A stretch of DNA of 64,000 nt from Isurus oxyrinchus. Taxonomy: Eukaryota. The DNA is taken from contig JANJGN010000007.1 in NCBI GenBank assembly GCA_026770705.1, forward strand, positions 112,778,001 to 112,842,000. The letters are read 5' to 3'. A program made the position numbers and the translations under genes. Shown here one piece after another: positions 1-58,414 of the stretch. Under the pieces are notes generated by a model, which saw only the letters and a list, made by a program, of their open reading frames with translations, made no database searches and had not been told where the DNA came from. Each line of letters opens with the position of its first letter. Position 1 is the stretch's first letter.

Positions 1-380
1 TGCATTGCATATTTATATCATTTAGTTATCACATTTCACTATACTGTCCAGTACAACCTCCAGTTACATACCTAATGAGCAGAATTATTCAGGCTGCAGA
101 TGTCTCTGTTATCCCACTGGGAGGCTGGGAAATGCCTTAGTTCTAATGCCTCCCAGTCTGTCCTCTTATCACCCCAACATCTGTTTACCCATCCTATTAA
201 GGCCATTAAGTTTTATGACTTGTGATTGTTCGTTGAGTTCCCAAAGTATCATATCCGTTGGCTATATTTCCCATCATGCTTCGAAAAAGCTCTCATAACT
301 GCATTTGTCTACTTTTAAAGCTGTTAATGTACATCCTAATATCAGTCTTAATATCAAATTATTTCAAATACCCCATTTCA
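1..380 (-). repeat. 3' LTR (partial)
   Basis: Aligns by eye with about 9960-10339; on the minus strand it starts TGAAATGGGG directly after the PPT. Confidence 0.9.
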
Positions 381-392
381 GTCCCTCCTTTT
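381..392 (-). promoter_or_regulatory. Polypurine tract
   Basis: Minus strand reads AAAAGGAGGGAC immediately before the LTR TG. Confidence 0.85.
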
Positions 393-568
393 GGACACCT
401 GGTCAGGCACTACCTGGCCCAGGAGGGACATTCCCAAGATCCTCTGCCCACCAGCAACGCTAGGGATCCTACTAGAGTCTGGTGGGCTTTGGGTCTGCTA
501 TCCTACTATTCTCTCATGGTTTTGTCTAAATCCTATTGACTTAAGCTAGGCTCAGAACCATCATTTCA

Positions 569-2400
569 TTAAATTGCAAAATCCTCAGAAATGTTCCTGA
601 TTTTAGATTTCCCTGGGAGGGGAGTTTTATTTGCATTGGATACTGAGATATGCCCTTTACTGGCCAGCATTACCATATGTCCTGCTTGGGTTACTACCAG
701 TCTCTGATAACAGCAAATACAAAGGCTAACTATTAAGACTGCAACAGACACAAAGGCTGCTGCCACCCTCACTACTTCCCACCAGTTATATGGCATTCTT
801 GCCATCTTGACTGGATTTCTATCTGAGTCTTCCAGTTTCCTAGCCATCCCTGTGGCTAGGTTTACCTGCACCCTTCCCCTCATGATTGCTTGACGGCTTG
901 TTCCATAAACCTTCTGGTAGTGGTTAGGGCCCTCTCCACCACTACCTAGGGTGTCATCAATACTTAATGTACTGTCCCACCATGGGCTGAATATGTAAAC
1001 AGTGTGGGCCGTACACGCAAGATGAAAGTCCTCTACTGTAAAAGAGTCAGTGATCTGTAGACAGAAGGTGTGGTTATTGTCATATTCTAACCCTCCATAC
1101 ATGAATCTTGCCCGGTTAGTCAGAGACAGCACTACTGTGTAGGGGAGGTTTGGACTGCCTTCAAAGGCCCTTTCAAGAGGATTAATCAACAGAACGATGG
1201 CAGAATCGTTACTGATGGGTTTCAGGGTATTACACGAGTAGATGATTCAGTGCAACACCCGGGTTCCTACCTGATATTTCCTCCCACTCTTTTCCACCCC
1301 TTTGTATCTGAATTTATATTCCACCAGCAGCCCTCAGACCCCCCCCCCACTCCCCCGATATGTTCCGTCAGTATGTTCCTGTGGTATACTCTTCAGAAAT
1401 TTTATCGTGTCTCCCTTGCCTCCTGTCATGGGCTGTGTAACTACTAATTCCTGTTGTTCTTCCTGTAAATTGATAAGGTCCAATTTCTCCACAGTCCGAT
1501 ATATGTGTCAAAGCGCAGTGCCAAATCTTACACACCTAACATTATCTATCAAGTCCTGAGCCAACATGTCACATGCCCTCCCCTTAGACTCTGAGTCAGT
1601 TGTATTATTGACTTTTAACCCCTCTAGTATACCTTCCCCCTGAACTTGTATAGCTGCAATTTTATTCAGTTCCCTGCGCTTCAAATCACAGTCCTCCTGT
1701 GATCTCTTTTGCTAGCTAAGAGGCATAAGCGCTGTAACTTTTATTTTGTCCAATCAGCCAATAAGGTCAGGATGAGGTTGGTCAAACTGTAGGTCACCTC
1801 CAGCGTACCCATTGTAGAATCATGTAATATCACTTTGTTTTTCCCACTTCTAATTACCCCATTCAGGAGCAGTGACATGATGGCTGGACACAGTGGGTTT
1901 TTTGATACCCACATGTTGACAAATTAAAGCATCTCGTGTCGCTACAATCAAGCCGATTAACAATATTTACACATGGCTCTTGACAAGGTTTTCCCTCCAA
2001 TCCTGGCTCCTAAACAAATGGGGGAAAATTAGTCCATCCGCCATAGTGTTCAGTCCCGTGTTGGACATAGATACCATGCCCGAGCTGGTATTGTACACTC
2101 CTTTTACGCCCACGTTTCCAGCTGTGGCACTAGTGTAAAAGTTGGGGCAATGTTATCTGAGTCAGATTGTCCCCTATTTGAAAAGATAACCTGAACAACA
2201 CAATGACTACCAGTAGTGACTCTATCAGAAATCCAAATGTTCAGTTTCCTTATCCACTCTCCACTCCCTCTTTTAGGTAGCTGCATGTATTGTCCTGGAT
2301 GCAGATAGGTGACTTTATTGACGTTTACGGTGGGCGCCTCCCATGCTGCTGTTATTATTAAGAGGGTGATTACTGCTGCTGCTGTTCTCCAGATTGCCAT
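569..2400 (-). pseudogene. Env-like type-I membrane glycoprotein, about 600 codons, with stops and frameshifts
   Basis: Signal peptide MAIWRTAAAVITLLIITAA at 2400; hand translation continues through stops (several are TGA, compatible with CGA decay) into ORF 569-1189; NxT/S sites (NNT, NDS, NHT); NWW followed by TM VVRVAAAFVSVAVLIVSL and CICC; located just upstream of the PPT. Confidence 0.75.
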
Positions 2401-2416
2401 TGCTCTGAGGGTTTGT

Positions 2417-2432
2417 CTGAAACAAAATAGTT
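2417..2432 (-). promoter_or_regulatory. Putative splice acceptor upstream of the env-like ATG
   Basis: Minus strand ctattttgtttcAG about 16 nt before the ATG; a second candidate tctgtttctgtcAG lies near 2458-2472. Confidence 0.55.
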
Positions 2433-2517
2433 AAGCGAGCTGCTAGTTGCTTTCCTGCTGACAGAAACAGACTGAGATATAGGTTTCACCTGCAACCAAT
2501 GCTTCCAAACATACTGG

Positions 2518-2754
2518 TCATTCCAAAACCCCCTTAACCATTACCTTATCCATCACTTCTGCCATGTCCTGGGGGAGCCACTCCCCCTCAATTCTTTCCA
2601 CTACCTCCTGCAGCTGTCTCACCTTGGACCTCAATTCCTTAAGTTGTCTACACAACTCTACAATGCACCTTCTTATCCTATCTTTCAATGGCCCAATATC
2701 TTCACTTCTAGTGGTGGTTCTCTCTGGGAGCTGCATAACTCTGCCTGTCATCAT
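2518..2754 (-). CDS. Small predicted coiled-coil ORF (78 aa), possible accessory gene of the LTR element
   Basis: ATG-started open frame with heptad-like IVELCRQLKELRSKVRQLQEVVERIE, directly upstream of the env-like gene. Confidence 0.35.
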   Translation of the reverse strand: MMTGRVMQLPERTTTRSEDIGPLKDRIRRCIVELCRQLKELRSKVRQLQEVVERIEGEWLPQDMAEVMDKVMVKGVLE

Positions 2755-5339
2755 GGTGCTAATCCTGTGGTCCTACTTTTTGTAGCTCACAGGCACATTA
2801 ATATGGTCAGTAATACACCCACACATCTTTTTGCTAGCTCTCCCTTTACCTGTATCTATCTTGTGATAAATTGTTGTCAAGTATTATTTATTCTTAACCT
2901 TCAATTGCCTCAACCACAGATTCCTGATACTTCTACTTTAAATTTTTTTTTAACTCCCTCTGACCATGATCATCTTAAGATTCTCTTAGTCAGTTTCTCT
3001 ACTGCCTTGATCATTGAAAAATGTTTCCTTACTCTTTAGGCCATATTAACCATGTCATGTCAAAGGAGGTCTCTGTCTCTTGATTTTTGCTTATCTCCTC
3101 CTGTACAGTTCCAATGTTTCAGGCCAGATTATCAACTTCAGTTATCTTAAAAAGTTTGTATATTGTATCCTCTTTCCCTAGATATATCTCCTAACCTTAA
3201 TCATTTGCTCATACCATTTTACGTATGCAATAGTTATCATCTTATCCTGTTCAGGTTGTCTGGAGAGACTTTACAGTCCAATAAAGTATTCTCATAATAT
3301 TTTTAAAACAGAAATCAAACATTTCTATTCGATTCCAGACATTAACATGTTTTGCTTTGTCGTCTTCCCCTTAAACAACATTTTATTTTCTCAAAAGTAA
3401 CCCACTAGATTGTGTCTGACTTTTTTCTCGTTTTAAAATTATCCCAGATACAAAAAGCAGTGTTGTTGAGTTGCCTTCAACTCTGCCAAAAATTGGATCT
3501 CTTCCAAACTTCTTCAAGGCTCCAGGCTTATCTTTATATTTTGAGAATAGACTTACAAGTACATTTTAAACTTATTTTTCAGCATAGAAGCTTGCAGCAT
3601 TGAAATGGTATCAATTGTTATCAAACCTTTTAAACTTTTAAACCCTTTCCTTTTTGAGATCTTTCTCAGGAACCAACCTTAAATCTTTAAAATTTGTAAG
3701 AATTGTAATTTACACTATCAAAATTAAAACTACTTCTTTCTCTTGGGTATGGATTTGTATCCAGATTAAAAGTCCCACATGTTTAGCAACACATATTCTT
3801 TATCTTAGATGGCATCATAGTTTTTCAAAAGTAACTTGCTAAGAGGCCTGATACACATTGGTGAATGTGTTTGCATCAGATCCCCTGGCCTAATGGGTGA
3901 AGTCAATTTTTTTTAAGGTAAAGCTTCTAACCATGACTACGCTGTGGCACTGAAAATCTTCATATAAATTCTTAGATCCTTAAAGCTGCTAGAAATCTTG
4001 TTACATTTGCATTTATCTCGAAATAAAAGCACAAGGGTCCATTCTGCTTGAGGCGGAATGGATTGATTCATCAGCCTGGAAGCTGAAGCTGCTGGTGGAA
4101 AGAGTTACCTCCCTGTTAGTCTGAAACCTGCTGTATTTTCTTTAGAATATATTCAAATTGATTTTTGGCTAGAAATCTCAACTCGAACCTTATAACTTAA
4201 CATTGGTTTGTTTAATTATATTTTCCATCGCTCCGACTCTCAATCCACATTGTGAGGCTTTTAACTCAAAGTGCTGAAACTCCACACACAAATGACAATC
4301 CAGGGAAGAAAACACACCAAAGTTCACGCACAAATTTTTCATTGCCACAAATATATAAAGATATGAATATCTCTATTTTATAACATTTATCTTAACAACT
4401 TAAAACTTCCATACACTAAATGAAACTTCAGGTAGCACTGGGAAGAAAGGGATCTTTGAGACTTTCACCTACAGGGACAATCACATTCTCCTCTGCCCCT
4501 GCCTATTAACTGCTTATTAACCCCTCTACCCCCCCAAAGGGTTACCCTTCTCTCTCTCTCTTTTTCTCTCTCTCTCCCCAGCTTTAGTGACTTACATGAA
4601 TTTAATTTTTTTTCCCCCTTTTTTAAGTTATTTGCCAAAAATTCAGTGGGGATCCCTTCTGGTCCCTACTCTAGATTTTTGTCAGCAATGGCTGATGTTA
4701 GGTTTATAGTCCGACTACTATTATTGCTTTCTTACTAAGAGACGGATCCATCTCCAGTCTATGGTTCTCTCACTACACCAGACACAGGGAAACAGTCGAT
4801 ATCATTTTATTGCACCAGTTTTCTCATTACACTGGATACTAGGGGCAGGATTTTCCAGTTGGTGTGCGGGGGTGGGCCCCACATGTTCTCGTGTAAAATG
4901 ACGCGCGGTGACATCGGGTGAGCATCTCAACATCACCACACGCCATCTTGGTATTTTGTTGAGCAGGTGCGCGATGATATCCATTGCGCAACCGCCATTA
5001 ATTAACGGGCCACTTAAGGCCCTTGACTCACCAATTGACGCTGATTTTTTTGGCGCCCGTGCAATCTTCGGGTTGGTGCACAGGCACAATGGGCAGGCGG
5101 ATAGGACACGTTCATATAAACCTCATCCCAGGGGGTGATAAGAGGGCTCACTGGGGTCGTAAGGGTGCTTTCTCAAGTATTGAATTTTCAAAGTTATTGA
5201 AACTTGCCTGTGTGACCTGCAATACTTCAAAATGCATTCCAGCTGCTTTGTCTGGATTCTTAACCTTCAGGTGAGCACTCTGCAGTGAGGTATCTTTTTT
5301 GGGCCTGCAGGTTTCAGAAAGCCTTCCCTTAGCCTGGGA

Positions 5340-6528
5340 ATGGGAGCTAAACTGTCCACTGGAGGCACCTCCTCTTGAGGAGGAAGGGAGGGCTAGAAGA
5401 GGGAGGAGGCCAGGAGTGCACATTCATTCTCCAGGGGAGCCACCTTTGGGAGAGCCAAGGGGTAGGCCAAGGCAGAAGGGGGCCGCAGAAGACGCCACAA
5501 TCCTGCTGCCGGGATATACAGGCGGTGAAGCAATTACCTCAATGTGTCTGAGGTACAGTGCTGAAGGAGGCTCTGTCACTCAAGGGAGACAGTCAATTCT
5601 GTCTGATATCTCCGCTACCTGTGTGGGTGCATACCCCATGCAGGTGGCTCTAAAGATTACAGCTGCCCTCAACTTCTATGCCTCTGGCTCCTTCCAAGGA
5701 TCGGTGGGTGATCTTTGCAGTGTCTCCCAATCAGCTGTCCACACTTGTGTCAAACAGGTTACAGATGCTCTGTTTAGGCGTGCATTGGCCACTTCTGTTG
5801 AGACCTGGCAAGCCAGACACAGCAAACCAGAGTCTTTGCAGCGTTTGCAGGCTTCCCCCACATCCAGGGTGCAATAGACTGCACACACGTGGCCATCAAG
5901 GTACCACCAGGTGAGCCCAGTGCCTTCGTCAACAGGAAGGGCTTCCACTCCATGAATGTGTGTGATCACAGCATGCTGATATTACAAGTTTGTGCAAGGT
6001 ACCCAGGCAGCTCCCATGACATCTACATCCTCAGACACTCCCAGGTCCCGGGGCTATTCAGTGCTCTAGCCCGGCTTGATGGATGGCTGCTGGGTGACAA
6101 GGGCTATTCCCTCAGAAGGTGGCTCATGATGCCTCTCCGCCATCCAAGAACAGACGCTGAGCAGCGATACAATAGGTGCCATGCCTCCACAAAGACTGAG
6201 GTGGAGAGAACCATTGGTCTTCTCAAGATGCGCTTCCGATGCCTGGATCACTCAGGGTGCACACTCCAGTACCCCCCAGATTGTGTCAGTGATAGTGGTT
6301 GCATGCTGCACTCTCCGCAATCTTGTGCTGGAAAGGGGGGACGCAGTGGACGATGAAGACGTCGACGCAGTGTCTGCGGCTGCACGCGATGAGTCCAGCA
6401 ACGGGTCTGAGGATGAGCATGCACAGGGGAATGCTGAGGGGGTGGATGCTGACCTGGGCATGCTGCAGGGAGGCAGAGACATCAGGGAGGCTTTACCAGG
6501 ACAAGCCTGGGCAGTACTCACTACCTAA
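5340..6528 (+). pseudogene. Harbinger (HARBI1-like) DDE transposase, frameshifted
   Basis: Motifs ALNFYASGSFQ, GAIDCTHVAI, NRKGFHS, YPGSSHD, LLGDKGY, VERTIGLLKMRFRCLD spread over several frames. Confidence 0.92.
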
Positions 6529-6793
6529 ATGCCAAATCTGCCAGATTAGGAACAGTAACTAAGGGCCTTGTTAATAAAGCTGAATTTCCCACAAAGCACT
6601 CATAACATTTTTGGAAAACATGCACATAGAGAAGAAAAGAGGTACCCTCAGCCATGGTCACATGTCTGAATTTAATATCACAAGCAAAGAAACTTTAGCC
6701 AAACAAATGACAATGGTGTTCCAATTCAAAGCAAATTATAAAGACGTCATCTCGAGCCAACACAAAAACACCAGTGATAAACCCGTGGTGTGC

Positions 6794-9014
6794 CTAATGT
6801 ACGTTATGTTTATGTTTCCGGGTACTACGTCTTGATGCTGCCCCATTGCTGGGAGTGGCATCTGAGACAGCCTGCTGACTCTGCTGTCCTGTTGGCCTCA
6901 ATGACCTTGGCGGTTGTCCTCTAGCCCGTGGAGCCTGTGCTGGCCCCACCTGGGAGGGATCTGCCAGTTCCACAGCTGGCATCTCCCCAGTCGTCGTAGC
7001 CTCACCGGATGCTACGGTCACCGGGAGAAGGGCGGAGGAGCTGCCACCCTCACCTGGAGTGCCCTGAGAGGTACCCGCAGAGACGGCAGGCAGCTGCAGT
7101 GCCGACATGAAGTCGCTTCGGATATCCCTGCTCACCGTGGATGATAGGTACCGAGTTGGGAAACTTGGTGCCCAGACCATCCCCCACACTGGCACTGACC
7201 AGCTGAGGTTAATGCCGATGTGAGGGCTTGCTAGTCAGAGTGCGTCCCCAGGAAGCCCTGATGGGTCTCCTGGAAGAGCCTCTCCACGAGAGTCGCCATT
7301 CTCTCCATGGAGGACACATGGTGCTCAGACATGTGGCTCATTGCTTCGGCGATTGTCCGCATAGACTCCTCCACCATGGAGACCAAGCCAAGTATAGCCT
7401 CATGTATCTGCCCCAGATGCTCCCACACACCCGACTGCATTTCGTGCCCCTGCTGCATCGCGGACTCCATAGGCACATCATCAGGCATTGACTGAGCATG
7501 TACCTGGTCCCCTGCAGTCCTCTGACTGCTGGTGCCAGGGGCACTCTCTGCCTCTGCCAGCTCCTCCAGCGACTGTGAAGTGCCCTCATCGCTGTGCCCT
7601 GGGACACTAGCCGATGTTCTAACTCCCATCGAGGTGGTGGTTATGTGTGCTGGTGCCTGCCTGGCAGAGATGGTGTGACACTGGTGAGACTTAAGGGCAC
7701 TCAGGTGTGAGAGCGGGCCTCTGCTGCTGCTCCTCCCAGCCCTGCTCTGCTGATGCTGAAAGGAAGAACAAGGACATTGGATCAGTTAACGTGGAGACAA
7801 TGGCAAAGCGCATCCCTGTCTCCCAGATCATTATGTGCTCAACCTTCCATGGTCAAGCCATGTTGCAAAATTAAATCACTTAACATTCAGCACTGCTATG
7901 GCTGCTGGGAGAACAATGCTGACCTCACTGCTGGCCATACATACCTGGCTGTGGCATCCCAGCCTCACCGACACCAGTGGATGTGGACGCATGGTGCCTC
8001 TCCAAATCCAGGGCTTCCTGCTCAAACTGGCTGAAAATGGCTAACTGCGCCAGGCCGCAACCAAGCCTCACACGGTCTGCAGAATTATGAGCATTCTTCT
8101 CCTGAAAATGAAAGAAGAGCATTGATTTGTGCAAATTATACATGGAATCTTTTCGTGCACGGCCCACCCCAGCCAGAGTGGGATATATCAGGGCTCCAGT
8201 ACCTCCTCACCCTGCTGCTGACAAGCACTTGCACAAAGATGCTAGGCCAGTTCCCACCCCCCCACTTCTCCCTTGGACACATGCTGCCTACATCACATTA
8301 GGCACCACACGGTATATCCTTCCATAGCAAGGAGGCGCAAGCACGTGGACCACAGAGGACAGCAGATGGTTTGTTGCCACGCCAGCTTGAAGCTCCCCTC
8401 CCAGCATGTCATCACTCTGACTTGGACATGTCCTGCAGTTCAAGCACAGCGCCGAGGTGCAGCTCCTCCAGGCTGCCTCCAAAACAGTCATGTCGGTCTC
8501 AGTGTACCACATGCTGCAGGCGCAGAACCCATTTCTTCACCACCCTCTAAGGCTGACCTCGGCATGGGCAATATCTGATGGCCCACCCAGCAAAGGACAT
8601 ATGCTGTTAATGATTCAATGCACCCACTATATTCAGACGTAGGGGCGGAGGGGGGCGGGGTGTTGGAGCAGAGGGGAAAGCTGACCAGCTGGGTTAAGTG
8701 ACCAATGCCAACATTGTCCTCACCCTTCCAGAGCGCAACAGGTCATTGAAGCGCTTGCTTCACTGCAACACTGGATCCAGGTGCGCTGTACCACGTCACA
8801 GGAGCTCACTACCTCCTCCAAGGCACATTTTGTCATGTTGGTGGGGCCTCCTCCTCCTGTCCTGGGGAACCAGCACTTCCCGCTGTGCTGTCACTTCCTT
8901 GAGGAGGGCAGCAAGGCAGTCATCGGAAAAACAAGGGGCACACTGAGCCCCCACCCTACCTTCTGGTCTTGTGTCACCTCTATTGCCCCTCTGCAGAACC
9001 CTTCGCCCAGCCAT
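6794..9014 (-). pseudogene. Harbinger Myb/SANT-like DNA-binding gene, three exons (about 9014-8725, 8102-7945, 7756-6794)
   Basis: APCFSDDCLAALLKEV...KRFNDL; GT donor near 8724; acceptor ctttcattttcAG followed by EKNAHN; basic C-terminus RRSTRKHKH. Confidence 0.75.
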
Positions 9015-9240
9015 TGCGAGTAGCCTTTCCAAGGCTGCCAGGCCTTCCTTTATACAGGTCGCCGGGTCGCTATTGGACCTGGTGGTGCGTCCGCCACCGC
9101 CCATCCACTCTCGCTATGCATGGGAGTCGTGAGGTACACTGGGCCCGCCCATGAAAAATGGCAGTGTGGACTCGAGTCCCCCCGCCAGCCAGAAAATTCA
9201 GCCCTAGGAAACGGTCGATAGCATTTTACAACACCTTTTA

Positions 9241-9568
9241 AAAAAATATTCATTCATGGGATATGGGCATCACTGGCTAGGCCAGCATTTCTGGCCTATT
9301 GTTCAGAGGGAATTTTTAAGGGTCAACCACATTGCTGTGGGTCTGGAATCACATGTAAGCCAGACCAGGTAAGGTTGGCAGATTTCCTTTCCTGAAGGAC
9401 GTTAGTGAAACAGAAGGGTTTTTACGACAATCAACAATGGTTTCATTGACATCATCAGACTTTTAATTCCAGATTTTTTATTGAATTCAAATTTCACCAT
9501 CTGCCATGGCAGGATTCCAGGTCTCTGGAATACTAGTCTAGTGACAATACCACTATGCCACTGCATCC
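9241..9568 (-). mobile_element. tRNA-derived SINE with LINE-derived 3' tail
   Basis: Head TGGCATAGTGGTA; body shared with 19510 and 28035; tail ...cccatgaatgaa plus T/A run. Confidence 0.8.
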
Positions 9569-9765
9569 TTTTAGGTTTTCTCAGAGCTCTCTCTAGGAAA
9601 CGGTCTGTACTACCATTTTACTGCACGGTATTGGTTAATTGGCACCAAACTGTCCTTAGTTACTCCACTCACAGACCCATACTCTGGTTCGGATCCTCAA
9701 ACCAACCCACCGGTTTCCTGTCTTGAATGTCGACCGCCCTATCTAAATGGGTGGTAAGTGAACAT

Positions 9766-9774
9766 CCTCACCTG
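9766..9774 (-). promoter_or_regulatory. Putative major splice donor of the LTR element
   Basis: CAG/GTGAGG about 45 nt downstream of the PBS. Confidence 0.5.
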
Positions 9775-9816
9775 TCCTCAACGTTCGATCCGGTGCCATT
9801 GACTGATATTGCAAGG

Positions 9817-9834
9817 ATCCTACCGACTATGCCA
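9817..9834 (-). promoter_or_regulatory. Primer-binding site, tRNA-Ser
   Basis: TGGCATAGTCGGTAGGAT, 16/18 match to TGGCGTAGTCGGCAGGAT (complement of the vertebrate tRNA-Ser AGA/TGA 3' end), 2 nt from the LTR CA. Confidence 0.88.
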
Positions 9835-9836
9835 GT

Positions 9837-10339
9837 TGTTGTGGAAAAAGAAACCACTCAAGTCTGTAAGTTGCCAATAACCTAGGACTTTTATTTACAA
9901 GCATATGCTGGAAGACACAGCCTGGTTCTACAGCATGTCTCCCCAATACAAAGGCTGTGTAGTATATTTATATCTTTTATTTATCACATTTCACTATACT
10001 GCCTAGTACAACCTCCAGTTACATACTTAAAGAGCAGAATTATTCAGGCTGCAGATGTCTCTGTTATCTCACTGGGAGGCTGGGAAATGCCTCAGTTCTA
10101 CCCATCCTGTGAAGGTCATTAAGTTCTATGACTTATGATTGTTTGTTGGGTTCCCACAGTACCATACTCATCATTGTGTTGGTTATATTTCCCATGATGC
10201 TTAGGAAGAGCTCTCATAGCAATACTTGTATACTTTTAAAACTCTTAATGCTCATAACTACACATGTCTACTGTTAAAGCTATTAATGTACACCTTAATA
10301 ACAATCTTAATATTGAATTATTTCAATTACCCCACTTCA
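9837..10339 (-). repeat. 5' LTR (503 bp)
   Basis: TGAAGTGGGG...ACAACA on minus; TATAAAT near 9966-9972 and AATAAA near 9889-9894. Confidence 0.9.
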
Positions 10340-12700: not shown

Positions 12701-13131
12701 AGATGCTTTTATGTATGTGCTAGTTAATTTCCCTAAGCACAGATCTTGCACATCTAACTGTAAACTAAATGTAGGGCAGAGCTTTTTGTTCAGCATGCGG
12801 GCACATGCCTGACACACTCGAGTGTAAAATAGCATGCAATGAAGGCAGGTAAGTGTCTGGATGTCATTGCGCACTTGCGCGTTATTTCGCCTGGCGGGCA
12901 CGCGTGGGTGCTGGAGCCGTGTCAGCCATTAATTAAGAGGCCTGTTAGTCAATCGATGCCGATTTTTCATTATCCGTGTAATTTCTTATTAGTATATGGC
13001 AGCTTCATCTCTGTTCAGGGCTTCATTATTAGCATTTCCAGACTTCGTTTCAGGACTCTTTGGTGTCTCCAAGGACTGCAAAGAATTCAGACCATGTTGA
13101 CCCTTCCAGGTTATCAGATAGCCTTCTGGTA

Positions 13132-14341
13132 ATGGAAATTGTGGTCTCCGCTGTAGGCACCTCCTCTGAGGAGGAAGAGAGGGGCAGAAGGGAGAGGAAG
13201 CCAAGTGTCCCTATGCAGCTTCCAGGGGAGCAACCTATGGGGGGAGAGGTGCAGGCACAGGGAGCACAGGGCCAGCAGTAAGTCCAAGGCGGAGGGGGCA
13301 GCAGAAGACACCACTGTCCTGCAGCCAGGGTTTACACATGGCGATGCAGCTACCTCAATATGTCTGAGGTGCAAAGCCGAAGCTCAAGGGAGTCAGTGAC
13401 CCCTATCTGTCAGATGATTGGACCTGAGATCATTCCCCTCAATGTGGGCAGACACCCCATGCCAGTGACTCTGAAGGTCATAGGGGCCCTCAACTTCTTT
13501 GCCTCCAGCTCTTTCCAGGGGTCAGTGGGGGATCTGTGTGGAGTCTCCCAATCAGCTGTCCGCAGTTACGTCAAGCTGGTGACAAAAGCTCTGTTCAGGC
13601 GGGTATGACTTTTGTTCATTTCCGTACGGACAAGGCCAGCCAGGCTGAGCGAGCCAGGGGCTTTGCAGTGGTTGCTGGGTTCCCCTGAATCCAAGGTGCA
13701 GTTGACTGCACACATGTGGCCATCAAGGAGCCAGCGGTTCATCCGGGTGTCTTTGTTAACAGGAAGGGATTCCATTCCATTAACGTGCAGATAGTGTGTG
13801 ACCATAGGATGCATATCCTGAAAGTCTGTGCAAGGTACCCTGGCAGCTCCCATGACACTTACATCCTGAGACACTCCCAGGTGCCAAGGCTCTTCAGTGC
13901 TCCAGCCTGACTGGATGGATAGCTGCTGAAGGGTGACAAGGGCTATCCCTTGAAAAAGTGACTCATGACAGATGTCCACCGCCCAAGAACAGAGGCAGAT
14001 CAGTGGTATAACAGGAGCCATGCCTGCACAACTGCAGTGATAGAGAGGACCATAGGTCTTCTGAAACTCGCTTCCAATGCCTGGACCATTCAGAGGCAGC
14101 ACTACAATACCCCCAAAGCGGGTGTCATTGATAGTGGTTGCATGCTGCACTCTCAGCAATCTGGTACTGGTAATGGGGCATCCACTGGAAAAAGAGGACG
14201 ACGCAGCTGCACAGGCCACAGATGATGAATCCAGCACTGAGCCAGAAGAAGAGCACGGTGATGAGAATGCTGAGGGCATAGAGGCAGACCTCTGTAACCT
14301 CCAGGGAGACAGGGATGCCTTGATCCAATGAGCCTTTAGCT
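13132..14341 (+). pseudogene. Harbinger transposase, disrupted
   Basis: ALNFFASSSFQ, VDCTHVAI, NRKGFHSINVQ, YPGSSHD, GDKGY, IERTIGLLK. Confidence 0.9.
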
Positions 14342-14734
14342 AGGCTGCCAAATAAGCCCTACGACCTCAGGCCAGGGCTGCCGCCTCCATCTCAGATGTC
14401 TGAAATAGCCCTTTCCTTTGACCCCAAAGTCCACCCAGTGCCTGTGCAATAAAGTTTTCAGCCACCCACATCCAGCAGCATTACATACTGACATACCCTG
14501 CATCACATTAAATAAAAAAGGTGAAGCATACTCAGGTCATTACGACAAAAGAAAATTTACCTCATGTTGACAATCAAAACAAATTAACAGAACCTTCTCT
14601 GATCTTCAACCCCAGACCAGTTAAAATAAACAAAACATTGCACAACAGACGATCACCCGTGACTAGCCCCTCTTGTGCTCATAGTCCCTTAAACTTACAT
14701 TTGTGAGTGCTACGTCTCGGTGTTCTCTCCTCAC

Positions 14735-14980
14735 TGGGACATGTTTTTAATTCAAAAATAAAATTTTTATTTGATATTTATTTGCTGTAGGAAACCTCAT
14801 CCCACCCGTGGATGAGGTTTCCTAAAAAATGTAAAGGCCACTTGGCCTTTTTGTCTGCCCGCCAACTGTAAGGTTTGGCCGTAAGCAAGTACACGATGAT
14901 GTTGGGACGCACACCCGATGTCATTGCACATCATTTTATGCTCAGGCGCGCACCCGCACACCGAGCAGAATATTCTGCCC
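14735..14980 (-). mobile_element. Half copy of the Harbinger-type MITE
   Basis: Reverse-complement similarity to 20198-20525; ends AATATTCTGCCC followed by ATA. Confidence 0.75.
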
Positions 14981-15461
14981 ATAGATTTAAACAGACCCCT
15001 GGCAAAAGCACACTCTGGACAGTCAAATTCAAAATGAGTTTCTTTCAGCTCTGGGTCCTTGCAAAAAGCGGCTTGAGGCTTACAGGTTGGAGGCTTTAGA
15101 TCTTAGAATCCCTCTCTTTTACCAACAGCCTTCTTTTCCTTTATACATATTTTTCTGTTTGAAATTCTCATTGTTTCACTAGGTTTTTTGAACTTCGAAC
15201 AATAAAATTCTTTCACAGCACCAATTTTATTAGTAAGCTTTGGAAAAAATAAACACATTTCTAAACTTCACCTGGCTAGGTGACACATTTCACCCCTCCT
15301 TTGAAAACAATTTAGTCTGGTTTATTTCAAAATGCAAATGTTCCCTTGACACCCATGTTTCTAAACTTCCCCATGTTTATCTAATTAACGTTTCAAACCT
15401 AACCTCTCTTCATAGATCAAAGCACCCAGACTAGGTGTCTCTAATTCAATTAAATCTCACA

Positions 15462-15504
<43 letters not shown>

Positions 15505-15564
15505 TTAGGCACATCGCATTATTACCCTATTTTACAATAAATTTCAATATCATTATGAGAACTA
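14981..15564. repeat. Unclassified insert, possibly an LTR fragment, with a (CA)n tract at 15457-15502
   Basis: Has no counterpart in the first Harbinger; AT-rich with AATAAA motifs and a CA microsatellite. Confidence 0.35.
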
Positions 15565-17300
15565 TTATTTCTCCTTGACACCTTGATGACCTTGGCAGTC
15601 CTGGGAGGAAGCGGCCAGTTTCACGGCTGGCATCTCCACATTCACCTCAGCACCATCAGATGCCCTGGTCACCGGCAGAGGGGTGGAGGAGCTGCTGCTG
15701 TCATCCATAGCACCCTGAGAGGAGCCCGCAGAGACGACAGGCAGCTCGTGTGCCAATATGAGGTCGCTATGGACTTCCCTGCTCACCATTGAAAGACAGG
15801 CATCTAGCTGGGATACCGGGTATCTCATCCATCTCCCACATGAACACTGACTGCCTGAGGTCAGTGCCTATGTGAGAGCTTGTAGGTCCGAGCGCAACCC
15901 CAGGAATCCAATTCTGTTTCTGGAGCTGCCTCTCCATGAGGGATCACCACTCTCTCAATGGAGGAGGCAGTGCGCTCACCATGAGGGTCAACACAGTGCT
16001 CATGCTCCACATGAACTCCTCCGTGATGGAGACCATAGCATGCAGACCCTCATGGATCTCCAGCAGATCTTCCTGCATGTCTCACTGGATATTCAGCATC
16101 TGTCGCCTAATGGATGACTCCAGATGCTCATCATCTGCCTTCAACTGAGCATTGTCCTGGTCTGCAGCAGTCCTCCGACTGCCGGTGCCCTAGGCACCCT
16201 CTGCCTCTGCCTGCACCTCATGCGAGTATGAAGTGCCCTCACTGCTGTGCATCCACATTCCAGCTGAAGATCTAAGGCCCACCAAGGTGCTGGTATCTGC
16301 GCTGGTGCCTGGTTCAGAGAATGGATGCGACACAGGTGCATCTGAAGCCTGGCAGTCCTCTGGCATCGGGGTGGGTCTTCGGGGTCCTGCGTTTGGGTGC
16401 ATGCTGGCAAACCCAAGGGGGAACAACGACATGTCATTAGTTTATGTCATCACACTCTCACTGTGCATACCAGGCACCCTGGTGAGACCATGGAGATCTG
16501 CATCATGGTGCCATTGTCTTTCAGTGATCAATGGGGAATCCAGTTTTGAGGCTGCCATCAGTGATAAGACTACACAAGAATGTTTGCATCATCTGAAACT
16601 CTCACCTCAGTGCATGCACTCTTACCTTCGCCTGACACCCCGGCCTCTCTGGGGCTGGTTTACCGAGGTGCCTCTCCAGCTCCAAGGTGTCCTGCTGGTA
16701 TCTAATAGGATTAGGAGGTTAGCGGGGCCTCCACCGGTCTGCAACTCTTTAATGTTTTTATAGGCCATCTTCTCCTGAAAGGATAGAGGAGCATTGATTA
16801 GTCCACTCTCTACCTGTAGCGCCATTGCAGCCTGGACAGCCCCACTTGAGGAGCACCTTGCAGGGCACATTTGAGCTGCAGCCCTAGAGCCACAAGGCAC
16901 TCAGTCCAAGCAGCCAGGACTCACCTCCTTTGCCAACTCTGGCGTCATTGACAATTGGCACTCAGACTCTAACACCCCTGAGCTCTACTGGGGGACGACC
17001 AGCCCATAACACTTCAGCACATTGATCCATTCCAACATGGTACTCACCTTTCCTGAGTGCAGCAGGTCGTTAAACCTCTTGCAGCACTGGGCCCAGGTGC
17101 GCCACACAACATCATGGCTGCTGACCAGCAGTGCCATCTCCTCCAAGCTCTTTTTGTAAGGTGTGGTGGCCTCCTCCTTCCATCCTTGGGGACAAGGGCA
17201 GCCACCTCGTCCAGGAGGACCACTCATTTGAAAACCAGGGGCTGAGTGTCCACCTGACCTTCCTCCCCACCTGGCATTTGCAGCCACATTGGAATGCATA
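15565..17300 (-). pseudogene. Myb/SANT-like gene of the second Harbinger
   Basis: WRTWAQCCKRFNDLLHSGK then GT donor; acceptor ctatcctttcAG then EKMAYKN...ELQTGGGP; 3' exon similar to 6900-7600. Confidence 0.7.
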
Positions 17301-25859: not shown

Positions 25860-28030
25860 GAGAACCATAGAAAAGTTATGATGCAGAAAGAGGCCATTCA
25901 GCCCATTGTGTCTGCGCTGAACAAAAAGAGAAAAAGAAACGAGCTGCTCATTTTAATCCCACTTTCCAACACCTGGTCCATAGTCTCGCAGGTTACAGCA
26001 CTTCAGGTGAAGATCCAGGTACCTTTTAAATGAGTTGAGCATTTCAGCCTCAACCACTAACTTAGGCAGTGAATTCCAGATTCCCACCATCCTCTGGGTG
26101 AGAAAGTTTTTCCTCATGTTCCCTCTAACCCTTCTACCAATCATCTTAAATCTATGCCCCCCCCCCCACCCCCCACTAATTGACCCCTCAACTAGGGGAA
26201 ACAAGTCTTTCCTGTCTCTCCTATCTAGGCCCCTCATAATTTTGTACAGCTCAATTAGATCACCTGTTAGTCTCCTCTTTTCTAAGGAAAACAACCCTAG
26301 CCTATCCAATCTGCCCTGGTAGCTGCATTTTTCAAGCCCTGGCAACATTCTTGTAAATCTCCTCTGCACTCTCCCCAGAGCAATTATGTTCTTCCTGTAC
26401 TGTGGTAACTAGAACTGTACTCAAAATTCCAGCTATGGCCTAACCAGCATTTTATATAGTTCCATCATTACATCCCTGCTTTTGTATTCAATACCTTGCT
26501 CAATAAAGGAAAGCATTCCAAATGCTTTCTTGATCATCTTGTCCATCTGTCCTGCTACCTTCAAGGACCTGTGGACATGCACTCCAAGGTCTCATTTCAA
26601 TAACTTCCTATTTATTGAATATTCCCTTGCTTTGTTTACACCCCCCCTCCCACTCCCCCCAAATGCATTACCTCACATTTCTCTGGATTGAATTCCATTT
26701 GCCATTTCTCCACCCACTCAGCCAAACCATTGATATCATTCTGGAGTCAACAGCTGTCCTCTTCACTTGCACAGTCAATTTTTGTGTCATCTGCAAATTT
26801 CCCAATTATGCCTCCCACATTTAGATCTAAATCATTAATATATACAACAAATTGCAAGGGCCCTAACACTGAACCCTGTGGAACACCACTGAAAATTTTC
26901 CAATCTCAAAATCCATTGACCATTACCCTTTGTTTCCTGTCACTGAGCCAATTTTGGATCCAACCTCACCCTGCCACCTTACCCTGTATCCCATGAGATC
27001 TCACTTTCCTGACCAGTCTGCCATGCAGGACCTTGTCAAATGCCTTACTGAAATCCATGCAGACAACATCCACTGCACCACCCTCATCAATCCTCCTTGT
27101 TACTTCCTCAAAAAATTCTATCAAGTTAGTAAGTCATGATCTTCTCCTAACAAAACCATGCTGACTATCCCTGATCAATCTGTGCCTTTCTAAATGACAG
27201 TTTATTCTGTCTCTCAGATTCCAATCATTTGCCCACCACTGAAGTCAGACTGATCGGCCTATAATTTTCTGGCCTATCCCTCGCACCCCTTTTAAATAAT
27301 GGTACAATGTTCGCAGACTCCAATCCTCTGGGACCTCACCTATATTTAGTGAGGATTGGAAAATGATCCCCAGAGCATTCGCTAATTGCCCCTAGCTTCC
27401 TTTAACAGCCTGGGATACAATTCATCTGGCCCTGATGATTTATCCACCTGCAAGGATGCCAGTCCCTCCAGTACTTCTTCTCTCACTATGTTTATTGTAT
27501 CTAATATTTCATACTGCTCCTCATGAGCTAGAATGTCTGCATCATTCCTCTCCTTAGTGAAGACAGAGAAAAAGTACTCATTGAAATCCCTGCCTATATC
27601 TTCAGCATCAACCCACAGGTTACCAGGTTACAGGTACATCTTTGATAGGTCCTACCTTTTCTTTAGTTATTCTCTTGCTCTTAATGTACTGGTAAAATGT
27701 CTTAGGATTTTCTTTGATTTAACTGGCCAATTTTTTTCATATCCTCTCTTTGCTTTCCTAATTTCCATTTTTACTTCACCCCTGTCCTTTCTAAATTCCT
27801 CTAGGCTGTCTATAGTATTACATGTTTTGAGAGTGTCATAAACTTTCTTTTTCTGTTTTATCTTGGCCTGTTTGCGTCTAGATAACCAGGGGGCTCTAGA
27901 TTTGGCCGTACCAGCCCTTTTCTTTGTGGGGACATATCTACACAGTGCCGTAGAATCTCACCTTTGAATGCCTCCCACTGATTTGACATGGTGTTTCCTT
28001 CTAATAGTCGTATCCAGTCCACTCTCGCCA
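25860..28030 (-). mobile_element. CR1 LINE ORF2 3' half, decayed
   Basis: QRRFTRMLPGL...LFSLEKRRLTGDLIELYKIMRG; GVPQGSVLGP; KFADDTK; CR1-type 3' UTR near 25860-25920. Confidence 0.88.
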
Positions 28031-28034
28031 GGAT

Positions 28035-30900
28035 GACGATGACGTAGTGGTATTTTCAATGCACTAGTAAACCAGGGTAAGGCTCTGGGGACCCAGGTTT
28101 GAATTCTGCCATGGCACATGGTGGAATTTGAATTTAGTAAAAATCTGGAATTAAAAGTCTGATGATGACCATGAAACTATTGTTGATTGTTGTCCTTTAG
28201 GGAAGGAAATCTGTCGTCTTTACCTGGTTTGGTCTACATGACACCAGACCCACAGCAATGTGTTTGAGTCTTAAATGGCCGAGTAAGCCACTCAGTTGTA
28301 ACAAACCGCTACAAAAAGGAATAAACCTGGCATCAACCAAGGCACCGGAAACGACAACGGCAGTCTCAACCCTGTTGACCCTGAAAAGTCCTCGTTACTA
28401 ACATCTGGGGGCTAGTGCCACAATTGGGAAAGCTGTCTCACAGACTTGTCAAGCAATAGCCTGACATAGTCATCCTCACAGAATCATACCTCACAGATAA
28501 TGTCTCAGACACCATCACCATCCCTGGGTGTGTCCTGTCCTACTGGTGGCAGCACAGTGGTATACAGTTGGGAGGGAGTTGCCCGGAGAGTCCTCAACAT
28601 TGACTCTGGACCCCATGAAGTCTCATAGTATCAGGTCAAACATGGGCAAGGAAACCTCTTGCTGATTACCATGTACCACCCTCCCTCAGCTGATGAATCT
28701 TGTTAATTCACCACTTGGGGGAAGCACTGAGGGTGGCAAGGGTGCAGAATGTACTCTGGGTCTTCAATGGACTTCAATGTCCATCACCAAGAGTGGCTTG
28801 GTAGCACCATTACTGACTGAGCTGGCCAAACCCTAAATACATAGCAGTTATGACTGGGTCTGCGGCAGGTGGTGAGGGAACCAACAAGAGGGAAAAACAT
28901 ACTTGACTTCATCCTCACCAACCTGCCTGCAGCAGATGCATCTGTCCAAGACAATATTGGTAGGAGTGACCACCGCACAGTCATTGTGGAGGCGTAGTCC
29001 TGCCTTTGCATTGAGGATATCCTCCATCATGTTGTGTGGCACTACCATTGTGCTAGATGGTAGTGCCACAAAAATAGGATAAATTTTGAATAGATCTAGC
29101 AACTGAAGACTGGGCATCCATCAGCAACAACAGAATTGTACTAGAACACAATCTGTAATCTCATGGCCCGGCATATCCCCCACTCTACCATTACCATCAA
29201 GCCAGGGAATCAACCCTGGTTCAATCACGTGTGCAGGAGGGCATGCCTGGAACAGCACCTGGCATACCTAAAAATGAGGTGTCAACCTGGTGAAGCTATA
29301 ACACAGGACTACTTGTGTGCCAAGCAGCAAGTGATAGACAGGGTTAAGCAATCCCACAATCAATGGATCAGATCTAAGGTTAAACAATCCCACAATCAAC
29401 AGATCAGATCTAAGCTCTGCAGTCCTGCCACATCCAGTTGTGAATGATGGTGGACAATTAAACAACTCACTGGAGGAGGAGGTTCCACAAATATCCCCAT
29501 CCTCAATGATGGAGCCCAGCATATCAGTGCAAAAGATAAGGCTGAAGCATTTGCGACAATCTTCAGCCAGAAGTGCTGAGTGGATGATTCATCTCAGCCT
29601 CTTCCAGAGGTCCCCAGCATCACAGATGCCAGTCTTCAGCCAATTTGATTCAATCCACGTGATAACAAGAAACAGCTGAAAGCACTGGATAGTGCAAAGG
29701 TTATGGGGCCTGACAATATTCCAGCAGTGGTACTGAAGACTTGTGCTCCAGAACTTGCCGTGCCCCTAGTCAAGCTGTTCCAGTACAGCTACAACACTGG
29801 CATCTACCTGGCTATGTGAAAATTGCCCAGGTTTGTCCTGTACACAAAAGCAGGACAAATCCATCCCAGCCAATTACCACCCCATCAACCTACTCTCCAT
29901 CATTAGTAAAGTAATGGAAGGGTCATCAACAGTGCTATCAAATGGCTCTTGCTTAGCAATAACCTGCTCATTGAGCACAGTTTGGGTTCCGCCTGGGTCC
30001 CTCAGCTCCTGACCTCATTACAGCCTTGGTTTAAATATGGACAAAGGAGCTGAACTCCCAAGGTGAGGAGAGAATGACTGCCATTGACATCAAGGCCGCA
30101 TTTGACTGAGTGTGGCATTAAGGAGCCCTAGCAAAACTGGAGTCAATGGGAATCATGGGGAAAACTCTGCTGGTTGAAGTCATACCGAGCACAAAGGAAA
30201 ATGGTTGTGGTTGTCGGAGGTCAGTCACCCCAGCTCCAGGACATCACCACAGGAGTTCCTCAGGGTAGTGTCCTGGGCCCAACCATCTTCAACTGTATCA
30301 TCAATGATCTTCCTTCTATCATAGGGTCAGAAGTGAAGATGTTCACTGATGATTGCACAATGCTCAGCACCATTCACGACTCCTCAGATACTGAAGCAGT
30401 CCATGTCCAGATGCAGCAAGACTTGAACAATATCCAGGTTTGGGCTAACAAGTGGCATGTAACATTCACACCACACAAGTGTCAGGCAAAGACCATCTCC
30501 AACAAGAGAGAATCCAACCATCGTCCCTTGATGTTGAATGGCATTACCATCACTGAATCCCCCACTGTCAACATCCTGGGGGTTGACCATTGACCAGAAA
30601 CTGAACTGGGTTAGCCATATAAATACTTTGGCTCCAAGAGCAGGTCAGAGGCGAGGAATCATGCGACAAGTAACCCACCTCCTGACTCTCCAAAGCCTGT
30701 CCACCATCTACAAGGCACAAGTCAGGAATGTAATGGAATACTCCCCATTTGCCCAGATGAGTGCGGCTCCTACAACACTGAAGAAGCTGGACACCATCCA
30801 GGACAAAGCAGTCCGCTTGATTGGCACCACATCCACAAACATTCACTCTCTGCACCACTGACACAGGGTAGCAGCAGTGTGTACCATCTACAAGATGCAC
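28035..30900 (+). mobile_element. APE-RT non-LTR retrotransposon (CR1/L2-Jockey group) with tRNA-like 5' head and no ORF1; decayed and 3'-truncated
   Basis: A box TGACGTAGTGG at 28040-28050; B box GGTTTGAATTC at 28096-28106; APE motifs NIWGL and PDIVILTES from about 28400; RT motifs GPDNIP, DIKAAFD, GVPQGSVLGP, FTDD. Confidence 0.88.
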
Positions 30901-45687: not shown

Positions 45688-46315
45688 TCACGACCTAAAG
45701 TTATTGAATTCAATATTCAGACCGGAAGGCTGTAAGGTGCCTAGTCGGAAGATGAGGTGTTGTTCCTCCAGTTTGCGTTGGGCTTCACTGGAACAATGCA
45801 GTAAGCCAAGGACAGACATGTGGGCAAGAGAGCAGGGTGGAGTGTTAAAATGGCAAGCGACAGGGAGGTTTGGGTCATTCTTGCGGACAGACCGCAGGTG
45901 TTCTGCAAAGCGGTCGCCCAGTTTACGTTTGGTCTCTCCAATGTAGAGGAGACCACATTGGGAGCAACGAATGCAGTAGACTAAGTTGGGGGAAATGCAA
46001 GTGAAATGCTGCTTCACTTGAAAGGAGTGTTTGGGCCCTTGGACGGTGAGGAGAGAGGAAGTGAAGGGGCAGGTGTTACATCTTTTGCGTGGGCATGGGG
46101 TGGTGCCATAGGAGGGGGTTGAGGAGTAGGGGGTGATGGAGGAGTGGACCAGGGTGTCCCGGAGGGAGCGATCCCTACGGAATGCCGATAGGGGGGGTGA
46201 AGGGAAGATGTGTTTGGTGGTGGCATCATGCTGGAGTTGGCGGAAATGGCGGAGGATGATCCTTTGAATGCGGAGGCTGGTGGGGTGATAAGTGAGGACA
46301 AGGGGGACCCTATCA
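45688..46315 (-). CDS. Penelope C-terminal Zn-linker and GIY-YIG endonuclease (fragment, open frame)
   Basis: CPRKRCNTC...NLVYCIRCSQCGLLYIGETKRKLGDRFAEH...EQHLIFRLGTLQPSGLN. Confidence 0.88.
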
Positions 46316-47714
46316 TGTCCACCCCAGCCTGTCCCTCCGTCCCCACCCCATCTTCCAATCCCAGCCCCAGCCGTGTATTCACTATACCCCCTGACCTTCC
46401 CCTCTCCGATGCTGAACGTTCAGTGCTCAGCAAAGGACTTAGTTTCATACCCTTACGCCCTCACCTCAATGAATTTCGGGCTCGGCATGATACTGAACTC
46501 TTCTTTCGCCGTCTTCGTCTCCGGGCTCACTTCTTTGGGCAGGAGTCCTCTCCCAGTTCAACGGATCCTTTTACCCATCTCCAATATTCTCCCTCCACCT
46601 GGACCCCTCCCTCTGGATTCTTACCTTCTCTTGATCTTTTCATTGAGAACTGTCGGCGCGACATTAGTCGTCTCAATTTCTCTGCTCCTCTCACCCATTC
46701 TAACCTGTCTCTCTCTGAACTTACTGCACTCCATTCTCTCAGGTCCAACCCTGACATTGTCATCAAACCCGCTGACAAGGGTGGTGCTGTTGTTGTCTGG
46801 CGCACTGACCTCTACCTCGCGGAGGCTGAGCGTCAACTCGCAGACACTTCCTCCTACCTCTCCCTGGACCATGACCCCACCACTGAACATCAAGCCATTG
46901 TTTCCAGGACTGTCACTGACCTCATCTCCTCTGGGGATCTCCCTCCCACAGCTTCCAACCTGATAGTCGCCCAACCTCGGACGGCCCGCTTCTATCTCCT
47001 ACCCAAAATCCACAAACAGAACTGCCCCGGTAGACCGATCGTCTCAGCTTGCTCCTGCCCCACAGAACTCATTTCTCATTATCTTGACTCCCTTCTCTCT
47101 CCCCTTGTCCAGTCCCTTCCCACCTACATCCGTGATTCCTCCGACACCTTACGTCACATCAACAATTTCCAGTTCCCTGGCTCCAACCGCTTCCTCTTCA
47201 CCATGGACGTCCAATCCCTCTACACCTCCATCCCCCACCAGGATGGTCTGAGGGCCCTTAGCTTCTTCCTCGAACAGAGGCCCGAACAATCCCCATCCAC
47301 CACTACTCTCCTCCGTCTGGCTGAACTTGTTCTCACGTTGAACAATTTCTCCTTCAACTCCTCTCACTTTCTCCAAATAAAAGGTGTGGCTATGGGTACC
47401 CGCATGGGCCCCAGCTATGCCTGTCTCTTTATGGGATATGTGGAACATTCCTTGTTGCAGTCCTACCCCGGCCCCCTTCCACAACTTTTTCTCCGGTACA
47501 TCGATGATTACTTCGGTGCCGCTTCATGCTCTCGTCGGGACTTGGAAAAATTTATTAATTTTGCTTCCAATCTCCACCCCTCCATCATTTTCACGTGGTC
47601 CATCTCTGACACTTCCCTTCCCTTCCTTGACCTCTCTGTCTCAATCTCTGGTGATAGACTGGATGATCTGCTTCTATCACTGCTTGTTTGTCCCTACAAC
47701 CACACCCCCACTCC

Positions 47715-47745
<31 letters not shown>

Positions 47746-47883
47746 CACCTCCCACACACACACAACTTAAACCAGCTTATATTTCAACTCTTTCCTGGAC
47801 TCGAAATCAAGTTCTGTCGAAGGGTCATGAAGACTCGAAACGTCAACTCTTTTCTTCTCCGCCGATGCTGCCAGACCTGCTGA
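46315..47883 (+). CDS. Penelope-type reverse transcriptase (open frame; truncated at about 47660 and running into the pLTR)
   Basis: KPADKGGAVVV, LPKIHK, GRPIVS, MDVQSLYTSI, GVAMGTRMGPSYA, RYIDD, PFLDL. Confidence 0.92.
47810..47848 (+). ncRNA. Hammerhead-like motif with CUGUCGA core (tandem copy 1)
   Basis: AGUU CUGUCGA A GGGUC augaa GACUC GAAAC GUC AACU. Confidence 0.72.
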
Positions 47884-55918: not shown

Positions 55919-57062
55919 TCACAGTTGGTTGCAGGGGTGAATACATTTTGTCACTTTACAATCTGGAAATGTATTCACTTTCACTGAATAATGTGTAATG
56001 GTGTCTTTCAGCTTCATTGACAGGCTGTACAAGTCCTCCCACTGCATCCCCCTGCACCCCCCCCCCCCTCCCCCCACACTAACAGTTCAGCTGCATGCAG
56101 ACGGCCCATGAGTGATTCTGGTGGAAGAAGTGTGTAACAGGGCCTGTTGGAGCCTCAAGGAAGCACTCTCCCATGCACACGAACCTTTTCCGCATCACAC
56201 TCATCTCAATGTCCTGAACATTTTCAATGCTGACCATCTGAACTGGCCTGCATCTTCATGAAGCACCTGATCTCGCCCACAATGTCTCTCGTTTAACGCT
56301 TGATTTAGCTAGCATGGTAGTGCTACAGTTTTTCTTGTGCTTCCCCATCCTTTCCCCTCCTCCAGTCACCCATTTTCTTTCCCCCATCACTGTCGACCCT
56401 CCCTGGCATCACCTTCCACCTCCCCTCTGTGACTGACCGGCCACAACCCTTTTCTTTCAGGGATGTGAAGGTGAATGCACGTTCCCTTCCTTCCCGAAAA
56501 TCCCACCCCACCCGCATTAACCTCCCCTGATCTCCTCCTTCCCACCACTAGGTTCAATGTCTGCCTCAGAGTCCCCACCAACTACCCTCGCCGTCCCTCC
56601 ATCGATACCATTGAATGCCCACCCTTGCACCTTACTGCCTCACTGTGCCCTTGGTCATTCTTAGCATCCCCTCGTACCATGCCCACCCTCAGTTTGCTCC
56701 ACAGGAGGCAGTCATGGACTCATCAGATCCCTCCCTTGCATGTTCAACTGGACATCCATCCCTCTGGACTCCTTCACTGTGTGGATCTCCTTCCCCCCTT
56801 AGATCTCCTCCCCTCCCCCACCCCCTTCCCCTCCCTGGAACTCCTTGCCCCCCCCGCACAAACTCCCCTCCGCCACCCCTCCTTTCTCACCACCCCACCC
56901 CAGTGGATTCCCCCTCCCCGGACTTCCATCGCTCCCACCCTTAGTCCTTTGTCCTTCCTGATCCTTCATACACCCTTATTTCTTTTTCCAGCCCTTACTC
57001 TTCTCCCTTCCTGACTCCTCCCTCCACCCTTACTCCTTCCCCTCTCTGCATTCCTTCCTCCA

Positions 57063-57860: not shown

Positions 57861-58414
57861 TCCCTTACACCTTCCACTCCCCTTATGCCTGCCTCCCCAG
57901 TTGCCTTCTTCTTCCCCATTACCTCCTCCTCCCTTACTCCTACCTCCCTAGTTGCCATCTTCTCTCCCATTACCACCTCCTCCCTCCACAGTTTTCCCTG
58001 ACCCCTTTGCTCCCCTCTCATCTGCCTCCCCTGACCTTTTCCACTCCCCTGCCCCCAACACCCCTTCCTCTCCCAGTCAATCCTTGATCTTCCTTTCCCA
58101 AACCCCCGGTACATCTTCCTCTCCCAAACACAGCTTGACTTTCTGCACCCCCTTGACCATCATCCATTGTGAGCAGCCCCTCCATGGTGACTTTACACTT
58201 TCTGTGAGTTGCTTCGCGGCAGAGCCATGTGCCTGAGAATCCACCCAGCATGCCATGGACGTTCCTCCAGGGTTCCATTGCTGTCAGGCTCCAGCATCTT
58301 CTGCTCTTTGGATGTCTGCGATGTAAGCAAGGCCCTGCCATTAAGTCCCGACTTCTGCACATTACGCTCATCTGCACCGGCATGTTTTCCCACCGACATG
58401 GGCGGACGATCCAG

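Follow-up and report, generated by a model that had tools for sequence, protein, structure and literature searches.

A decayed shark endogenous retrovirus that retains env and a likely integrase remnant, with an envelope predicted to be F-type

How does an endogenous retrovirus (ERV) come to keep an envelope gene and its cis signals while no gag or pol is recognizable between them? This question is raised by an element on the minus strand of a 64,000-nucleotide stretch of Isurus oxyrinchus DNA (GCA_026770705.1, contig JANJGN010000007.1, positions 112,778,001 to 112,842,000; hereafter the window, in which all positions are given). A preliminary description, made from the letters alone, took it for a non-autonomous satellite that carries only an envelope-like gene and is mobilized in trans by a helper while supplying a spliced glycoprotein, that is, for a part of a possible bipartite system. 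The reading that we favour, at roughly even chance, is that of one decayed copy of a multi-copy, defective, env-retaining and likely snakehead retrovirus (SnRV)-like ERV subfamily that spread by complementation in trans. In its present state the element is inert and encodes nothing functional.

Paired long terminal repeats (LTRs) with TG...CA ends, a primer-binding site (PBS) and a polypurine tract (PPT) identify the element as an ERV, the end of the 3' LTR lying outside the window (Table 1). All of the signals named in the preliminary description (LTRs, PBS with 2-nt spacer, PPT, splice donor, acceptor and env ATG) were located on the minus strand, with PPT, donor, acceptor and ATG where it had put them, and its internal length of about 4.8 kb agrees with the ~4.77 kb measured once a Harbinger transposon and a short interspersed nuclear element (SINE) are subtracted. 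An Rfam search returned no match. The PBS is of a type that we take to be tRNA-Ser. It agrees in 16 of its 18 letters with that of the scaffold 2 ERV of elephant shark (Han 2015, PMC4422223). Over 339 aligned columns the two LTRs are 88% identical, with three indels and a Kimura two-parameter distance (K2P) of 0.134. With the two substitution rates quoted by Han 2015, 2.2e-9 and 2.2e-10 per site per year, the insertion therefore dates back roughly 30 to 300 million years and is old under either rate. As a separate observation on the leader, an ATG in the leader exon (9797-9772), joined by the predicted splice to 2416-2370, would open a short upstream frame that overlaps the env start out of frame; SnRV, by contrast, appears to begin Env within its leader exon.

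The span from PBS to env acceptor measures ~2.7 kb and leaves too little room for gag-pol, which takes up 6.1 kb in SnRV. Neither Pfam nor tblastn nor frameshift-tolerant profiles detected gag, protease (PR), reverse transcriptase (RT), RNase H or integrase core in 2860-4850. Pfam searches on six frames of 2381-4860 matched nothing, tblastn of open reading frames (ORFs) from 48 + 5 + 1 viral loci against the element gave nothing significant, and when the Gag of five viruses was compared with two regions of the element, the best result was reached by 2 of 30 shuffles. The three minus frames are devoid of CCHC, DTG and YxDD motifs, as had been reported, and also of DSG and LPQG. The AT-rich and stop-rich character ascribed to 2800-4800 is borne out by 2860-4240, where 38% of the letters are A and each frame has 29-39 stops; env is 29-32% A.

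The statement that the element holds no integrase motif, and with it the view that env is its only gene, was not borne out. Directly upstream of the env acceptor and on the correct strand, integrase profiles align collinearly over 2894-2539. In a test window picked after the motif had been noticed, the score of a mixed nine-sequence profile was reached by none of 300 shuffles and none of 210 real 600-base windows, and that of a SnRV-like two-sequence profile by 1/300 and 1/210, respectively; over the whole 2.5 kb each was reached by 1 of 100 shuffles. Profiles built from gamma or foamy sequences only gave no signal at this place, SnRV alone found nothing (19/60 shuffles), and a word-based search of the 84-residue ORF of the tail against longer proteins yielded 0 of 21. 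One frame over the tail contains 2 stops in 126 codons. This modest signal above chance makes it likely that 2894-2539 is the remnant of an integrase C terminus. The profile search for gag and pol remnants, proposed earlier as a check, has a divided outcome: none was found in 2860-4850, and the integrase tail emerged at 2894-2539. By eye, 2900-3970 had suggested a tandemly duplicated integrase. This idea was rejected: the self match scored 26.8 bits against a shuffle maximum of 32.6, chained alignments were reached by 19 and 9 of 150 shuffles and by 20 and 28 of 56 real windows, and a block test by 448, 614 and 135 of 1000. A 39-base repeat, 72% identical between 3363-3401 and 3797-3835, is not significant in shuffles.

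Sequencing runs give access to sister copies. The window stretch or part of it is contained in 20 of the 24 runs listed, from two organisms. Contigs of four runs were aligned to the window at 80% likeness, each piece being <800 bases long, and summed contig depth was not taken as copy number. Pieces identical to the window (organism A) coexist with pieces ~98% identical (organism B) and with diverged ones at ~82-88%. Another letter is carried by at least 17-27 contigs per run at env positions 1406 and 1481, at least 2-5 at 2090-2127, at least 6-9 at 3478 and 12-14 at 3847 in the A-rich tract, at least 10-17 at 4684-4687 in the leader and at least 16-28 at position 231 of the LTR; the PBS (9822) is covered by at least 11-14 other contigs per run. 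One diverged piece (262-899) bridges LTR, PPT and env, and another (2133-2514) env, acceptor and integrase tail. Three more (2518-3064, 2686-3110 and 2686-3123) link the integrase tail to the AT-rich tract at ~83% identity, and two further ones span 3963-4299. PBS, leader, AT-rich tract and env are thus common to several sister copies, a finding that speaks against a single deletion confined to this locus. Because diverged pieces bridge tail and tract, the tract adjoining the tail appears to be a family trait and not private to the locus. A working integrase core of this age would be expected to show up as readily as env does; the loss of pol function is therefore likely to predate the spread of the sister copies. 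The claim of a non-autonomous, multi-copy element accordingly stands as far as the ~2.7 kb of room and the shared parts go; for its remainder, a sister copy spanning the element was not seen. The summed contig depth over 2479-3894 is ~ten times that of env and very uneven (41 contigs at 3786 and 1 at 3637 in one run), and short parts of this interval may match another repeat family.

The env gene sits in 3' position behind the acceptor, as in an ERV, with a signal peptide, a heptad region and a transmembrane helix, and it is broken. A frameshift-tolerant alignment to relatives of ~24-50% identity scored 534, compared with a maximum of 55 in 40 shuffles. Its path from 2036 to 701 crosses 8 stops and 7 called frameshifts, some of the latter being likely alignment artefacts. 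Three frames of the window are needed to match P0018, an intact teleost Env relative, and ~57 residues of P0018 around the cleavage (furin) site and the fusion peptide have no counterpart in the window. One open stretch of 225 codons includes an out-of-frame segment. Judged by its reading frames, this env copy is dead, and with such stops and frameshifts no glycoprotein would be made from it; the supply of a glycoprotein envisaged in the preliminary description is not supported for this copy. A Pfam search of env matched no family, a word-based homologue search with the env frame retained 0 of 7,999 candidates, and a PDB sequence search produced chance matches only. The immunosuppressive domain (ISD; LQNR motif) of gamma-type env is absent from the element.

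The family to which this env belongs was more accessible through its relatives. One env frame, read with X at stops, matched 16 of 1.84 billion proteins at E values up to 0.001; among these the bacterial cadherin-like P0013 was dropped as a chance match. Ten relatives were looked up and eight could be named, from cloudy catshark, loggerhead turtle, three cyprinids including zebrafish, two catfish and a mormyrid. The best match is the cloudy catshark protein (35% identity, E 8e-37). No Pfam family fits the relatives, and PF00523 was unmatched in the six searched for it. P0018 comprises 744 residues with a signal peptide, an RSKR site and a transmembrane helix. In a global alignment with SnRV Env it gave z 5.5 (0/300 shuffles), the SnRV segment having been picked by hand, compared with z 2.2-3.1 for three foamy Envs and z -0.3 to 1.3 for five gamma, delta and epsilon Envs. 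In Atlas features P0018 scored 0.88 to PF00523 (82% of members) and Baculo_F clusters, which is a lead only, and its first Atlas match is the third Atlas match of SnRV Env. Between this env family and SnRV Env, hmmsearch gave no significant match. We propose, as a prediction from sequence comparison, that this env family is F-type (paramyxovirus-F-like) and closest to SnRV Env.

Two observations concern the relatives themselves. At 90% identity the cluster of P0018 counts 444 members, of which the two that carry names are cyprinid and several have long open env frames; it likely represents a young family with intact env, from which this Env type would be easier to approach. The catfish protein P0010 joins butyrophilin-like Ig domains to a fragment of the env family and is possibly an annotation chimera. 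Among env relatives with DNA context, 9 viral-contig and 88 metagenome-contig stretches matched a pattern, and none was confirmed.

Among known systems, lineage I of CmiERV, the SnRV-like ERVs of elephant shark (Han 2015, PMC4422223), is by eye the closest in cis signals and integrase tail. Beyond the PBS match and the short spacer, it shows a donor just past the PBS, an acceptor right behind the integrase end, the same integrase-tail motifs and a PPT ending in the same four letters before TG. It differs in that the scaffold 2 element has gag and pol, whereas the element described here is without gag-pol and without the ISD motif. SnRV (10,688 bases) likewise has a donor shortly after the PBS, its Env may be weakly homologous via P0018, and the integrase tail of the element scores with the SnRV-like profile; SnRV differs in its PBS, complete gag-pol, 1134-codon env frame and 3' ORF, and a direct comparison of SnRV with the window gave no significant match. 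These features make the element likely SnRV-like (class III). Foamy viruses and fish foamy-like ERVs are described with an Env core related to paramyxovirus and pneumovirus F, and their Envs are weakly similar to P0018 as given above; they have, however, a Lys, Asn or Thr PBS, a GGGTG PPT-LTR junction and accessory genes behind env (PMC11468914, PMC5210030, PMC5512871). This element has neither such a PBS nor such a junction. P0033 and P0037, unnamed intact Pols from public assemblies, are 33% identical to SnRV integrase and stem from an undescribed SnRV-like or related retrovirus.

A precedent for defective proviruses with env exists in chicken, where EAV-HP is without most of pol. Its multi-copy defective proviruses are believed to have spread by a helper, and it differs in being alpharetroviral and recent and in having a known exogenous partner (PMC4607243). 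Complementation in trans as such is an established route (PMC10435555). In the model that we favour, the progenitor of the present element was likely already without gag-pol function and had retained the cis signals together with an env predicted to be F-type. Its full-length RNA would have brought PBS, packaging signal and PPT to the Gag-Pol of a helper, an autonomous relative that would have provided packaging, reverse transcription and integration, while a spliced RNA (9772 to 2416) would have produced Env. The integrase tail may owe its retention to its position directly before the env acceptor. Once inserted, the copy would have decayed neutrally and acquired the Harbinger and the SINE.

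Several observations weigh against this model. Among contigs shorter than 800 bases, neither a sister copy from end to end nor a helper nor a target-site duplication was seen. Among the matches listed, other contigs covering 3637-3642 fall to 0-2 per run, and no diverged piece bridges 3123-3963 or 4299-9800; sister copies may therefore hold gag-pol at such a junction. The pol profiles were built on distant references (two SnRV-like Pols), so that a very decayed pol could escape them, and isolated integrase-like words occur at 3933, 3788, 3612, 3412 and 3012 (3012-3966), out of order and not significant. On the side of env, hhalign found no significant match between the env alignment and SnRV Env (E 0.47), a structure model reached a pLDDT (predicted local distance difference test) of 34.5, too poor for a Foldseek comparison to mean anything, and the env of CmiERV scaffold 2 appears by eye to be gamma-type with an immunosuppressive domain. 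Part of these points would suit an ordinary full-length provirus family in which this locus lost ~3 kb of gag-pol after insertion, the remaining 2.7 kb being made up of patches of leader, gag and pol too decayed to be recognized. The age of the insertion with its many indels, the presence of an integrase tail and of scattered integrase-like words, and the failure to see an end-to-end sister copy among the short contigs are compatible with such a history. We nevertheless regard it as doubtful: sister copies are collinear from tail into tract at ~83%, yet no integrase core is found there, and env of the same age is easily found.

The bipartite or segmented system of the preliminary description would consist of an env-only satellite, whose F-type fusogen was preserved by selection as its pol eroded, and an env-less, tRNA-Ser-primed gag-pol partner in sharks, each dependent on the other. 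In this copy the pol side is far more eroded and richer in A than env, as would be expected if env was selected for longer, and the many other contigs over env agree with this. No partner was seen among the short contigs, however, LTR, PPT and env may persist merely as a 3' block, and teleost relatives have long intact env ORFs; we judge such a system improbable. As a diverged derivative of lokiretroviruses, a still less probable reading, the element would be the first of its kind from cartilaginous fish. Lokiretroviruses (Wang and Han 2021, PMC7947760) have an F-related Env with an RXKR site; by eye, the motifs of the present integrase tail recur in theirs, which also counts against the model above, and their host range overlaps that of the env relatives; the Atlas lead to F-type env points the same way. 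They differ in their PBS (three places), and the stretch of supplement text that was searched, in which line breaks may hide matches, showed no Ser-type PBS. Their Env has a short surface subunit, with ~110 residues before the cleavage site versus ~315 in P0018, shows 0 of 3 motifs of this env family and is detectable by PF00523; the env family described here has neither PF00523 similarity, in the six relatives, nor a short surface subunit. In the same study, lokiretroviruses were found in 0 of 6 chondrichthyan genomes. That the host has co-opted this env is hardly credible: one 225-codon stretch is open and the locus appears to be shared with a second organism at ~98% identity, but stops and frameshifts occur throughout, and for this copy the out-of-frame segment within the open stretch contradicts the idea.

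The literature searched (few subscription papers, without Repbase) contained no description of this env family and none of a pol-less, env-retaining shark ERV. Helper-spread defective ERVs are a known strategy; what would be new here is a pol-less shark ERV family with a predicted F-type env. Even if the element should prove ordinary, the known shark ERVs would gain a family with an env from an unnamed group that has no Pfam family and is predicted to be F-type. This is relevant to the possible use of an F-like fusogen by basal retroviruses and to the exchange of env among SnRV-like viruses, as the elephant-shark tRNA-Ser relative appears gamma-type in env. ERV surveys based on RT would overlook such pol-less copies. 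The bipartite reading, if true, would amount to a segmented retroviral life style.

Table 1. Features of the element and of its later insertions (positions in the 64-kb window)
Feature	Position	Strand	Remarks
3' LTR	1..380	-	cut by window start; its 3' end beyond the window
PPT	381..392	-	
env, broken	569..2400	-	signal peptide, Cys-rich surface part, heptad region, transmembrane helix, short tail; predicted F-type
env ATG	2400	-	
Predicted env branch point, pyrimidine tract and splice acceptor	2417..2435 (cut 2417/2416)	-	match to consensus only
Likely integrase C-terminal remnant, frameshifted	2480..2894	-	profiles align 2894-2539; 2539-2480 by eye only
Leader continuation and A-rich tract	2895..4842	-	gag, PR, RT, RNase H and integrase core not detected; common to sister copies
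Harbinger-type DNA transposon, decayed	4843..9204	+	terminal inverted repeats, TAG target duplication, DDE_Tnp_4 (PF13359) E 7e-28
SINE in leader	~9247..9561	listed as + (strand and family provisional)	very high contig depth; loose ends at 9247 and 9561
Predicted splice donor, leader	9766..9772 (cut 9772/9771)	-	match to consensus only
PBS	9817..9834	-	2-nt spacer after LTR
5' LTR	9837..10339	-	503 bp, TG...CA; TATA-like and AATAAA motifs; outside the span of the preliminary description

The Harbinger and the SINE are insertions later than the ERV. A second Harbinger-like copy lies at ~13100-17200 and is 68-72% identical piecewise to 5355-8873. Farther along the window, 45688-47883 holds a 560-codon frame with reverse-transcriptase-like motifs and, in the opposite listing, a 243-codon frame with GIY-YIG-like motifs, which we take to be Penelope-like. 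A long G/C-skewed tandem array with ~22 codons per unit by eye and several open frames occupies 56950-58100, and the fragments at 25953-26408 and 30132-30593 presumably derive from the reverse transcriptase of a CR1-type long interspersed nuclear element (LINE), which they resemble.

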